Assembly: GCA_041571435.1 (NCBI GenBank)
Contig: JBFFUI010000046.1
Coordinates: 1 to 14,842, forward strand
Reading direction: 5' to 3'
Length of the DNA: 14,842 nt
From: Sulfurimonadaceae bacterium
GTDB lineage: Bacteria; Campylobacterota; Campylobacteria; Campylobacterales; Sulfurimonadaceae
Of this stretch, positions 807-3,293 are shown piece by piece. How positions within the stretch are numbered: the stretch's first letter is position 1; each line of letters begins with the position of its first letter. Below the pieces are notes generated by a model, which did no database searches, was not told the DNA's origin, and worked only from the letters and a program-made list of their open reading frames with translations. A program made the translations under genes and the position numbers.

Positions 807-1955
807 ATGAAACGAAAATATATTCAAGACCATAATCCCGTAAGCTTTAGCTTCAGACCGACCCGTGAGGACTTTATCGTCGATGAGATCCCTCTTTACG
901 GCGAGGGAAAAAGCGGCAACTACCTGCATCTGCACATCAAAAAGACCGACATGTCCACACTGGAGATGATCGCCGTGCTTGAGGAACAGACCAAGTTCCA
1001 CAACATCTCCTATGCAGGGCTGAAAGACAAGTACGCGACGACCACGCAGTACATCTCGATGCCGGCATCGTACGAGAAGTACTTCGCCAAGTTCAAGCAT
1101 CCTCAGATCGAGATACTGGGCTCCTACCTGCACAAAGAGAAGCTCAACATCGGCGACCTCAAAGGGAACCGTATCAAGATCCGCCTGCGCGACGTCACGC
1201 CGGCGGCGGCCGAAAAGCTTGACAGGGTGCTTCAGGAGATCATCCGCCAGGGGATGCCGAACTACTTTGGCTACCAGCGTTTCGGGCAGGGTGAGAACCA
1301 CTTTGAAAAGGCGCAGGAGGCGGCGCACGGCAGCAAAGTGTTCAAAGACCGCCGCCTCAACAAGCTGATGAGCAATGCCTACCAGTCCTACCTCTTTAAC
1401 GATTGGCTTGTCGAACGTGTCCAGCTCTGCCGGGAGCTCGATTACATGGACATGGACGCCTTTGAGAAGAAGTGGCACCTGACGACGGACGATGTCAAGG
1501 CCATACAGGCGCAATCCTCTATTTTCAAAGTCCTGCCGGGGGACATTATGCTCGATGTCGCAACGGACAAATGGGTCAACGTCACCGATCTTGCATCGGT
1601 CAAGAAGCCCTATAAAGAGCGCAAGCTGCAGCCGACCGGGATGCTGGTCGGTAAAAAGGTCTGGCGTTCCCGTGATGCGGCAGGTGCGATAGAGAGCCGC
1701 CACGACGATGACGAGGTCATCATGGCCGGTGAACGCCGTGTCGCCTGGGTCTACCCTAAAGAGATCAAGTCGAACTACATCCAGGGCGAGAGCATCTATG
1801 AACTCTCGTTCGCCCTGCCAAAAGGGGCATACGCGACGGTGCTGCTTGAGAACCTTGCCAACAGGGATGTCGAGAGCGCGCCTGAGACGAAAACGAAGAA
1901 GAAGTTTGTGCCGCTTCGGTTCGATGATCCGGATGATGAGGATGATGACTACTAA
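807..1955 (+). CDS. truD: tRNA pseudouridine(13) synthase TruD family protein
   Basis: TruD motifs EDFIVDEIP, YAGLKDKYATTTQ (catalytic Asp74), GDLKGNR, PNYFGYQRFG, AYQSYLFN and FALPKGAYAT. Confidence 0.95.
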   Translation: MKRKYIQDHNPVSFSFRPTREDFIVDEIPLYGEGKSGNYLHLHIKKTDMSTLEMIAVLEEQTKFHNISYAGLKDKYATTTQYISMPASYEKYFAKFKHPQIEILGSYLHKEKLNIGDLKGNRIKIRLRDVTPAAAEKLDRVLQEIIRQGMPNYFGYQRFGQGENHFEKAQEAAHGSKVFKDRRLNKLMSNAYQSYLFNDWLVERVQLCRELDYMDMDAFEKKWHLTTDDVKAIQAQSSIFKVLPGDIMLDVATDKWVNVTDLASVKKPYKERKLQPTGMLVGKKVWRSRDAAGAIESRHDDDEVIMAGERRVAWVYPKEIKSNYIQGESIYELSFALPKGAYATVLLENLANRDVESAPETKTKKKFVPLRFDDPDDEDDDY

Positions 1956-2025
1956 GGAGAAAGCTTTATACTTTCAGCTTTTTTGAATTTCTATCATTTT
2001 TTGACCTAATCACTTTTATCTCATA

Positions 2026-2500
2026 CACTTTTTCCTTTTTTCACGATGCGAAATTTAGTTCCGCCCTGTGCGGCGCTTTAGCGCTGTGTCACCGCAAAAA
2101 AGGAAACGAAAAAGCTCTCGTGGACGGCTTCAATCCCGACGGCTGTCGGGTTCCTTCCTTTCACTCGCTCCATCCCTAAAAACGACAAACTCGCTGCGCT
2201 CAGACAGAGCCGTTTTTTTAACGGAACTTCGCTCACTTCAGTCAGCTCTGCAGATGCCACGAATTCCTCAATCGGTAACGCATTGATTTGATGTAAAAGC
2301 TGACGCTTTTGACTCAGTTTGGATTGTGTCGACATATAACAACTTCGTGGTACAGTTGCTGAAGCCGGAGGGGTTTAGGGGGTCAAAGTATGGATGGTTC
2401 AAAGAGTAACTGTACCCGCTTCGTACTCTCTTTTTTTCCTCAAGGTTTTTTCTCTGTACGAGCAGAGAAAAAAAGTTGAATACTAGTGCTATGAAGTAAT
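2026..2500 (+). ncRNA. Candidate large structured non-coding element, copy 1 (weak homology extends about 1957-2530)
   Basis: Homologous to 2578-3250, including a 45-nt identical block (2057-2101 = 2609-2653). Several stems covary between the copies. No credible ORF. The + strand assignment is tentative, based on G.U pairs and GNRA loops. Confidence 0.6.
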
Positions 2501-2577
2501 AAACGAAATTCAAAAGTAGACAAAGTCGAATAGAGAAGACCTGTCTCAGCGTATTGAATTTTGATACTTTCAAGACC

Positions 2578-3250
2578 ACACTCTTACTTTTTTCACGATG
2601 CAAAATTCAGTTCCGCCCTGTGCGGCGCTTTAGCGCTGTGTCACCGCAAAAAAAGTAAGCAAAAAAGCTCTCGTGACGGCTTCGCGGTCGGCGGGCTGCC
2701 GACTCCTCTCACTCCAGTCGTTTCTTCGCTAAAAACTGCCGCACCGGTGCTATGCACAACGGTTTGGCGCGTCGGCTAAAAAACGCAAAGAAATTTGCCT
2801 TTTTCTTAACGCCTTTGGCACTCCCTACGGTCAGACAGAGCCGTTTTCTTAACGTTCCTCCACTCACTGCATTCAACGCTGCAGATGCCACGAATTTCTC
2901 AAGCGGTGACGCATTGATTTGAATATCAAAGCTTACGCTTTGATCCCCGTTCGAATAGTGATAAAGGTTGAAAGTTTGTTGTGTCGCAGTGTGATCTTGG
3001 AAATTCTATTCAGGCAGTAGGAGAAGTCAATTAAGTAATGCATTGCTACATGAGGACATTAATTTCGGCAGTAGTGCCGAAATGCAAGAAGCTTTTGAGT
3101 TTTTATATGCAAAAAAGTGAATAGTGGCCGGAGGGTATCGCTTTTTTCTTTTTTGGTTACTTCTTCTTTTGAGCGAGCAAAAGATGAAATGCATGGGAGC
3201 AGCTTGGCTGCGAGTCGTAAAAAAGTAACGTACTATTGCTATAAAGTAAT
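2578..3250 (+). ncRNA. Candidate large structured non-coding element, copy 2 (weak homology extends about 2532-3280)
   Basis: Same conserved blocks in the same order as copy 1, plus inserted hairpin domains at 2737-2820, 2945-3125 and 3189-3218. The 5' arm (2653-2681) is complementary to the 3' arm (3126-3162). Confidence 0.6.
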
Positions 3251-3293
3251 TAAAAAAAGTTTGCACGCAAGGAAGTGGAACTGAATGTCAGGC

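Follow-up and report, generated by a model that had tools for sequence, protein, structure and literature searches.

The stretch of DNA analyzed here, which we call the window, spans 14,842 nucleotides (nt) of contig JBFFUI010000046.1 from a bacterium of the family Sulfurimonadaceae. Within it, a gap of 1375 nt separates the truD gene from the next open reading frame (ORF), which lies on the opposite strand. This gap holds two diverged units, copy A (2001-2520) and copy B (2555-3262), arranged head-to-tail and belonging to a multicopy, modular repeat whose conserved part is a folded core. At the center of the repeat is a domain of 157 nt that, according to the model derived below, forms a rod carrying a single side hairpin and, at its apex, a loop of conserved sequence.

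The relationship between the two copies is evident from two direct repeats returned by a repeat search, one joining 2032-2113 with 2584-2665 (82 nt, 91% identity) and the other joining 2189-2291 with 2820-2922 (103 nt, 84% identity). The search also listed the arms of three inverted repeats (2583-2600/2642-2659, 2440-2456/2463-2479 and 2349-2360/2405-2416). Pairwise alignment of the whole units gives a mean column identity of 73%, with large differences between modules. Copy A is a canonical unit with a middle module that we term M-a. Copy B carries a different middle, M-b, together with an insert in its tail and an insertion of ~80 nt (~2738-2817) in the rod apex, which breaks the apical part of the domain and is accompanied by a partial internal duplication (2797-2811/2840-2854).

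The differences between the copies preserve base pairing. When both central domains (2111-2268 and 2664-2899) are aligned to the family model, 7 of its 39 pairs have changed on both sides and are still paired; the same count is 0 in all six slid controls, and 5 of 500 shuffles reach 7. Outside the central domain, compensatory changes number two in the head hairpin, one in the hairpin at 2295-2310/2925-2944, and three in the tail hairpin. A preliminary description of this DNA had proposed two diverged tandem copies whose differences keep the pairing, and both the repeat search and the alignment to the family model agree with it. The five hairpin pairs that it named all lie where it placed them, and its figure of about ten compensatory changes was right and exceeds chance (7 of the 39 core pairs plus ~6 in the outer hairpins).

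Table 1. Features of the truD gap and its flanking genes (window coordinates).
Feature	Position	Strand	Details
truD	807-1955	+	Pfam TruD
Promoter-like site TTGACC-17-TACACT	2001-2029	+	Just 5' of copy A head; consensus match only
Copy A head hairpin	2031-2106	+	Arms 2031-2041, 2096-2106; loop 2042-2095
Copy A central domain	2111-2268	+	Model R1, 151.9 bits, E 1.5e-44
Copy A 3' core segment	2269-2310	+	AAGCGGTRACGCAT-type box; hairpin AAAAGC-tgac-GCTTTT 2295-2310
Copy A middle module, type M-a	2325-2420	+	Arms 2349-2360/2405-2416; CCGGAGGGG box
Copy A tail	2421-2507	+	Pyrimidine run; hairpin arms 2440-2456/2463-2479; TTGAATACTAGTGCTATGAAGTAAT box
Copy B head hairpin	2583-2659	+	Arms 2583-2593/2649-2659; expanded loop as in copy A
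Copy B central domain	2664-2899	+	Model R1, 105.5 bits, E 1.3e-30
Copy B 3' core segment	2900-2944	+	Hairpin ATCAAAGC-ttac-GCTTTGAT at 2925-2944
Copy B middle module, type M-b	2945-3140	+	Unrelated to M-a; common to G000:C3 copy
Copy B tail	3141-3262	+	Hairpin 3165-3184; ~35-nt extra insert; AAAAAAGTAACGTACTATTGCTATAAAGTAAT box
ORF, 167 aa	3331-3834	-	Without Pfam match

Many further copies exist. Sequence from 60 further regions was added, and a profile made from seven copies of the genome to which the window belongs (G000) gave 135 matches, of which 118 are full-length cores and 109 are distinct, with a mean pairwise identity of 71% (range 50-99%). Mutual information with average-product correction, computed on the 109 cores, ranks Watson-Crick pairs at the top, some of them between columns ~115-140 apart, and these top-ranked pairs nest into a closing helix, a side hairpin, three further helices, and an apical loop. 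For the central domain we made a fresh MAFFT alignment of 101 domains (100 distinct), leaving out 8 of the 109 cores whose length fell outside 145-165 nt or which ran beyond the retrieved loci. RNAalifold alone predicts 23 pairs on these 101 domains, 16 of them with double changes. With the 39-pair structure, 92.1% of cells in the 100 distinct copies are paired, compared to 77.4% in shuffles, and changes on both sides occur at 29 of the 39 pairs (622 cells). The covariation score is 0.402 against 0.152 when shuffled (0 of 500 shuffles reach it) and at most 0.082 in slid controls, over which a structure derived from the same sequences is favored.

A covariance model built from the 39-pair structure, R1, retrieved 44 copies from other genera (42 distinct). 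Their alignment was fitted to R1 and so leans towards it; in the 42 copies, 91.3% of cells are paired, double changes occur at 31 of the 39 pairs, and the score is 0.552 compared to 0.180 for shuffles, none of which (0 of 500) reaches it. As judged from these alignments, selection is shown to keep the fold of a single strand. The preliminary description had likewise argued for selection on fold rather than on coding, which is borne out by the covariation in the 100-copy and 42-copy alignments and by the lack of a codon signal. Specifically, 321 indels separate nearest copies, 237 of them single-base and only 23 multiples of three, and variability lacks a 3-base periodicity. A Pfam search of the eight ORFs in the gap returned no match. 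Nevertheless, most of the compensatory differences may distinguish subfamilies of a selfish element from one another without necessarily reflecting selection on resident copies, a point that weighs against the interpretation that we favor below.

Units measure ~450-700 nt, with ~450 nt for the canonical form and ~157-260 nt for the conserved folded core. A terminator-like hairpin accompanied by a T run comes first in many copies, ahead of a TTGAAT/TTGACN box and a conserved TTGAC. There follow the head hairpin, one of whose arms is pyrimidine and the other purine, the ~210-nt core, and a AAGCGGTRACGCAT box. A hairpin of the form AAAAGC-N4-GCTTTT, the middle module, a pyrimidine run, the tail hairpin, and a ACTAGTGNTATGAAGTAAT box complete the unit, and similarity between copies stops after this last box. 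The head-hairpin arms covary among copies (TTTCC/GGAAA, CTTAC/GTAAG, CTC/GAG), and the outermost pair of the AAAAGC/GCTTTT hairpin is AT in 66, TA in 24, CG in 9, and GC in 9 of 108 copies. The central domain of copy A folds in the model as nested long-range helices, with the side hairpin at 2135-2150 and the conserved apical loop at ~2188-2206; the side hairpin of copy B lies at 2687-2703. Type M-a is described from an alignment of 24 canonical copies and their consensus fold. Judging by 75 tail matches, core and tail are separated by ~100 nt in units of the common M-a type and by 140-340 nt in the other types. Within the copy B tail, 3219-3253 matches the family tail at 80%, and likeness to other copies ceases near 3262.

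Some members are head-plus-core units or tight inverted pairs without a tail. The usual form in other genera is a tail-to-tail inverted pair of head-plus-core arms, 15-330 nt apart, and a pair on contig C36 of G000 has this same inverted form. Ten inverted pairs could be placed in a gene context, five of them tandem, four convergent, and one divergent. Because such pairs occur in every gene context, we regard the pair as a unit of its own.

Smaller sequences are found inside the units. Both head loops in the window contain an insert of ~45-54 nt (2042-2095 and 2594-2648) with the small hairpins CCGC-CCTGT-GCGG and GCGC-TTTA-GCGC. It is also present in some copies elsewhere (e.g. loci L035, L038, L027, and L020) and missing from most, and it appears to behave as a separate optional module. 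At the truD site of another genome of the genus, G010 (L232:941-1520, reverse strand), there are two 26-nt inserts that are near-perfect reverse complements (one mismatch), located ~190 nt apart, one in the loop of the upstream hairpin and one just before the side hairpin. Either they are a small inverted-repeat element nested in the copy, or they form an additional long-range helix. In genome G083 (L259), a small repeat, CTAAAGAAACATCGCT..GCGACCGC..GCTT.TTTT, occupies both the head loop and the position after the core hairpin of one arm (1088-1120 and 1367-1405), and makes up a smaller repeat family of its own, nested in the larger one.

Several features of the core distinguish its two strands. 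First, A.C oppositions at paired positions outnumber G.T by 107 to 43 in the genus set, a count without the one pair at which 63 of 99 copies have A.C and 38 of 42 other-genera copies have a Watson-Crick match, and by 47 to 20 in the other genera. This 2.4-2.5-fold excess in two data sets is the reverse of what an RNA of the plus strand would predict. Among nearest-neighbor changes away from a Watson-Crick pair, 116 are likewise to A.C and 48 to G.T. Second, mismatches are purine-purine on the minus sense by 110 to 23, and the internal loops are correspondingly pyrimidine-pyrimidine on the plus sense. Third, the RNAalifold energy of the core is -85.1 for the minus sense and -70.4 for the plus sense. 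Fourth, on the minus sense a U run of at least five follows the closing stem in 107 of 109 genus copies and 27 of 36 other-genera copies, whereas no major helix on the plus sense is followed by one. The G+C-rich closing stem followed by U5-6 has the look of an intrinsic terminator. Finally, the invariant tail box reads TAGTAT, TAGGAT, or TAGAAT by eye on the minus strand, and the varying position of this TAGnAT sequence is the one that -10 boxes tolerate. On the minus strand of the copy A tail, the -10-like TAGTAT would correspond to 2485-2480, a box reading taken from the alignment.

We therefore favor, with a probability of about 0.5, an interpretation wherein the repeats are an old, once-mobile family in which each unit is a small transcription unit for a folded RNA made from the minus strand of the window. 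The strand that folds would most likely be a transcript, and each unit would be read on its own in the direction opposite to its head-to-tail order. Transcription is proposed to start at the -10-like TAGnAT box in the tail, such that the tail hairpin opens the RNA, and to end at the rod, which would double as a terminator by virtue of its G+C-rich closing stem followed by U5-6. RNAs of ~360 nt for copy A and ~560 nt for copy B are predicted. The family would have spread by mobility, whether still active or since lost, and its conserved apical loop may be the contact for a putative partner, although this last assignment is a guess.

Numerous observations weigh against this interpretation, and many of them speak for an element of the plus strand that has its own promoter 5' of the head or forms the 3' untranslated region of the upstream gene (here truD). 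Acting in cis, such an element would insulate or resist nucleases by its structure, a role that has been suggested for REP/BIME, BOX, and ERIC. Gene contexts were tallied for 113 arrays, using crude ORF calls and related genomes that are not independent, and among the 76 arrays with ORFs on both flanks 35 lie between tandem genes, 30 between convergent genes, and only 11 between divergent genes. Of 69 arrays, 48 have a gene reading into the head and 38 have one reading into the tail, and in tandem contexts 20 arrays are co-oriented with their neighbors and 10 opposed. The heads in G000 begin ~40-90 nt past stop codons, with no terminator between dxs and the head of the C3 copy. Promoter-like sites stand 5' of the head on the plus sense, namely the consensus match in front of copy A (TTGACC-17-TACACT) and, by eye, related TTGAAT-N16/17-TATCCT sites ahead of some of the heads in other genomes. 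The middle and tail fold better on the plus sense (-61.3 versus -49.1), where alone the box GCG-GTRA-CGC would be a GNRA loop. In a distant relative (L287), a promoter-like TAGTATAAT box lies 5' of the rod on the plus sense, and a co-oriented gene follows. Moreover, head-plus-core copies and inverted pairs without a tail lack the proposed promoter, and wobble pairs are rare on either strand (1-3%), which fits a fold in DNA as well as one in RNA.

The signals from promoter-like boxes, tetraloops, and gene context thus conflict. A plus-strand element is countered by the excess of A.C over G.T, by the pyrimidine-pyrimidine internal loops, by the U run that is conserved on the minus sense only, and by the occurrence of inverted pairs in every gene context. 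Taken together, these sequence features make the minus sense probably the working strand for the core, and both strands may be made. We consider an element working on the plus strand possible but rather unlikely.

Another explanation places the fold in single-stranded DNA, where it would act during transposition or replication of a foldback transposon resembling a MITE (a transposable element of the miniature inverted-repeat kind), transcripts having no role and covariation recording the divergence of master copies. The element is indeed multicopy and patchy across genera, and it forms tandems, inverted pairs, and nested insertions, with contig ends often falling within copies. Its ends give a local inverted-repeat score of 24, compared to 15.4 +/- 2.65 for mononucleotide shuffles (4 of 500 reach it), a score that T runs may inflate. 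Also in its favor are the scarcity of wobble pairs on both strands and a tail subfamily with 97-99% identity between species that have 83% identity in truD. However, no transposase partner was found, and G000 is without a TnpB-type domain (PF07282). Y1 transposase-like genes occur in two genera where no element was detected (10 of 29 genomes of g33 and 4 of 4 of g3) and were not found in g34, g27, G004, and G007, which carry it. Searches with blastn gave no match in plasmids and phages. The divergence of the copies within one genome (mean identity 71%) and the conservation of their sites across species are inconsistent with a recent burst, target-site duplications were not established, and the borders of the element are fuzzy. 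In addition, a three-way rod with a loop conserved in sequence across families exceeds the needs of known transposon ends. We find a DNA-level element of this kind unlikely.

Partnership with RAYT/Y1 or TnpB proteins was rejected; by genus, the Y1 genes do not track the element. G000 does have a single Y1 transposase-like gene (G000:C1:587-913, minus strand; 62 bits, open frame of 260 aa), which is far from the copies, and similar single ~260-aa Y1-like genes are present in many genomes of the family. The G000 gene may be RAYT-like and domesticated, with no relation to the repeat. A single reverse transcriptase gene (G000:C52:2515-4098, L291:1468-3051; 527 aa) is also far from any copy. It encodes an N-terminal RVT_1 domain only, without a maturase-type or intron-type domain, adjoins a Ham1-family gene, and is possibly of the defense type.

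A bolder version of the RNA interpretation is that the rod and its near-invariant 19-nt apical loop define a new, order-wide, multicopy class of trans-acting RNA in Campylobacterales, or else an element resembling a short interspersed nuclear element (SINE) that is copied through RNA. In the first case, the RNA would work with a putative protein partner, for example as a scaffold or guide for a mobile-element or defense enzyme; in the second, the element itself would be copied through an RNA intermediate, as a bacterial counterpart of SINEs. If either were true, the repeats would be genes for RNA and not passive DNA. Searching G000 for trans targets of the apical loop with 11-mers gave 26 matches elsewhere in the genome, with ~32 expected. 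A CsrA-sponge function was rejected, as the 5.45 GGA per core on the minus sense equal the compositional expectation (5.28 +/- 2.05). This bolder version is speculative, and we judge it unlikely.

Tandem non-coding repeats of 0.5 kb are typical of type I toxin-antitoxin loci, and a module of the LDR or aapA/isoA kind might therefore be envisaged, in which the plus strand of M-a would encode a hydrophobic peptide that is opposed by an overlapping antisense RNA. Many M-a middles carry GGAGG, 6 nt, and GTG, and ~13 of 30 motif-picked copies keep open a frame ...PEGFRDS.YMILLIVTVP.IALLLFR*, with a version of 16-17 aa in three more. Promoter-like boxes can be seen by eye on both strands of the tail. 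Nonetheless, the frame is absent or shifted in both M-a copies of G000 and missing from M-b units, head-plus-core units, and other genera. Valine-to-lysine changes occur inside the hydrophobic stretch, and the residues follow a covarying stem. Since it would also leave the core, the conserved part, unexplained, we regard a toxin-antitoxin module as very improbable.

The G000 assembly (66 contigs) contains nine copies, namely the two in the window, two on C33, the two inverted copies on C36, two on C3, and one shortened copy on C6. All are intergenic and lie beside unrelated housekeeping genes, including dxs, mnmG, lgt, and genes for a HAD hydrolase, an AI-2E transporter, a TetR regulator, and a POR subunit. 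The shortened copy (C6:6044-6193) is without the segment from the head to the rod apex, and ~160 nt 5' of it is the class A RNase P RNA (G000:C6:5559-5888, L015:3560-3889; 252.8 bits). Within the genus, BLAST detects the element in every genome (15 of 15), each with 4-42 matching segments, many of them at contig ends; one other genus of the 25 sampled also carries it. Searching the family with R1, with at most 19 candidates scored per genome, expands this to 53 of 151 genomes and 14 of 23 genera. By genus, the counts are 15 of 15 for g1, 10 of 17 for g7, 8 of 12 for g37, 5 of 29 for g2, 0 of 29 for g33, and 0 of 10 for g10.

Beyond the family, the matches in a class-wide sample of 151 genomes are all partial and limited to the upper rod; two other families have them in 2 of 6 genomes each, and the 53 and 60 genomes of the two large families have none. 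These AT-rich relatives keep a covarying stem and, almost letter for letter, the loop (U/A)AACUCNCUNCGNUCAAACA; a shorter relative of the repeat is present in other families of Campylobacterales. In one such relative (L288:1501-1607 and 1701-1785, G037), a short version of the rod lies ~100 nt 5' of a tRNA gene, with a TTGATATAAT box between. A scan of public contigs with a 16-base motif, filtered with nhmmer, produced mostly chance matches in unrelated phyla, the few real ones being from Sulfurimonadaceae or Campylobacterales, so that the preliminary description was right to speak of Campylobacterota.

Of the 13 genomes in the genus that give a truD match, 11 have the element at the truD site. 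Two copies are present in G000, G003, and G004, and one in G002, G005, and G010; a copy is cut by a contig end in G007 and G011, and fragments remain in G006 and G009. A deletion has left a head-only remnant in G015, and the site is empty in G001, where synteny is broken. The single unit of G002 joins the front of copy A to the right flank of copy B. Because the pair is found in G004 as well, the ancestral state was probably the tandem, from which G002 would derive by deletion. The 167-aa ORF is kept beside the site in G002, G010, G005, G015, and G004 (76-96% nucleotide identity). Directly 3' of the truD stop codon in the window (1960-1984), a hairpin, AAAGCT..AGCTTT, followed by a T run resembles a weak truD terminator; it has too few G-C pairs to be called in a consensus terminator scan. 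A second site, between the gene for the HAD-family hydrolase and mnmG, is common to G000 and G009. We infer that many copies are old residents that have stayed at the same sites across species.

Tails are unusually alike between species, with identities of 92-99% for that of copy A and 97.7-98.8% in one subfamily, whereas the truD 3' ends of G000 and G004 are 83% identical and the cores 75-80%. The 87-nt tail of copy A (2421-2507) recurs at 96-99% identity in G004, G009, and G002 and in two other G000 copies (loci L226:2580-2666, L038, and L179 being among those compared). Tail identity above that of truD points to very strong constraint on this one module, or to its recent conversion or transfer.

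The preliminary description had offered a choice between a large, ornate non-coding RNA and a structured mobile or single-stranded DNA element, and had suggested that Rfam be searched and that homologs be collected into a covariance model. A structured, dispersed element is what emerges, whereas a single large RNA does not: the repeat is multicopy and modular, with a smaller folded core, and the model recovers it across the genus and other genera and, in part, in other families. At gathering scores, Rfam 15 has no match in the window (ARRPOF, HEARO, GOLLD, ROOL, and group I and II introns included), and at E values up to 10 it gives seven matches, none of them relevant, the best scoring 23.4 bits where 48.1 are needed. 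Only RNase P is matched on 16 copy-bearing loci, and only tRNA on four distant-relative loci. A suggested likeness to ARRPOF accordingly fails, as no Rfam model reaches its threshold on the window, the 16 further copy loci, or the four distant-relative loci. Group II intron, integron attC, and 6S-like readings were dropped for lack of their defining motifs and of an Rfam match. The papers that could be searched include no report that ties Sulfurimonas or Sulfuricurvum to MITE, REP, or intergenic repeats; general repeat reviews alone came up. The earlier remark that no characterized equivalent is known has therefore held up, in that we found neither an Rfam family nor a publication describing the element. 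By these comparisons, the element represents a real and well-supported structured repeat family of Sulfurimonadaceae, interspersed, modular, and non-coding, for which we found no earlier description.

Absent from Rfam 15 and from the papers searched, these repeats are a ready candidate for a new RNA family or an entry in repeat libraries. The repeat family has very strong covariation and tens of copies per genome. It spans a sulfur-oxidizing family of Campylobacterota, with shorter relatives in others, and it accounts for long, seemingly empty intergenic gaps and for many contig breaks in these genomes. It also provides a tractable case for asking whether interspersed repeats with RNA-like folds are selfish DNA, cis-acting transcript ends, or RNA genes, and its conserved apical loop offers something definite to use as bait in pull-downs.

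Among known systems, the REP/BIME elements of enterobacteria and pseudomonads (reviewed in PMC3184786) are similar in being extragenic, multicopy, hairpin-forming, and arranged as singles, tandems, and inverted pairs. They are also enriched 3' of genes and thought to act on transcripts or DNA topology. REPs, however, are simple palindromes of 20-40 nt tied to RAYT (Y1) transposases, whereas the element described here is 250-700 nt long, includes a 157-nt three-way rod with a conserved loop, and shows no correspondence with Y1 in its distribution. Membership in REP was rejected, as the short G+C-rich palindrome of 20-40 nt gives way to a unit of 250-700 nt with nested long-range helices.

The HEARO RNA or omega-RNA of IscB and the omega-RNA of TnpB from the insertion sequence (IS) IS605 are structured RNAs of 150-300 nt that become multicopy by riding mobile DNA. 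In contrast, the present element has no Rfam match, G000 encodes no TnpB-type domain, and no nuclease gene adjoins the G000 copies. With ARRPOF, for which Rfam 15 gives no match, the element would share nothing beyond being non-coding and structured. MITEs, Correia/NEMIS and ERIC among them (PMC10969869), are non-coding, multicopy, without a transposase gene, and subject to nested insertions; the ends here are only weakly inverted-repeat-like, clear terminal inverted repeats and a parent IS were not found, and the copies are old and diverged. The BOX, RUP, and SPRITE repeats of Streptococcus pneumoniae (PMC3049150) are modular and intergenic, with conserved ends, a variable middle, and predicted folded transcripts. 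Our element, from another phylum, has no sequence relation to them, is larger, and carries long-range covariation across its family and beyond. In kind, the family belongs with the interspersed bacterial repeats with RNA-like folds, among which its fold is larger and more elaborate than those of REP, BOX, ERIC, and Correia.

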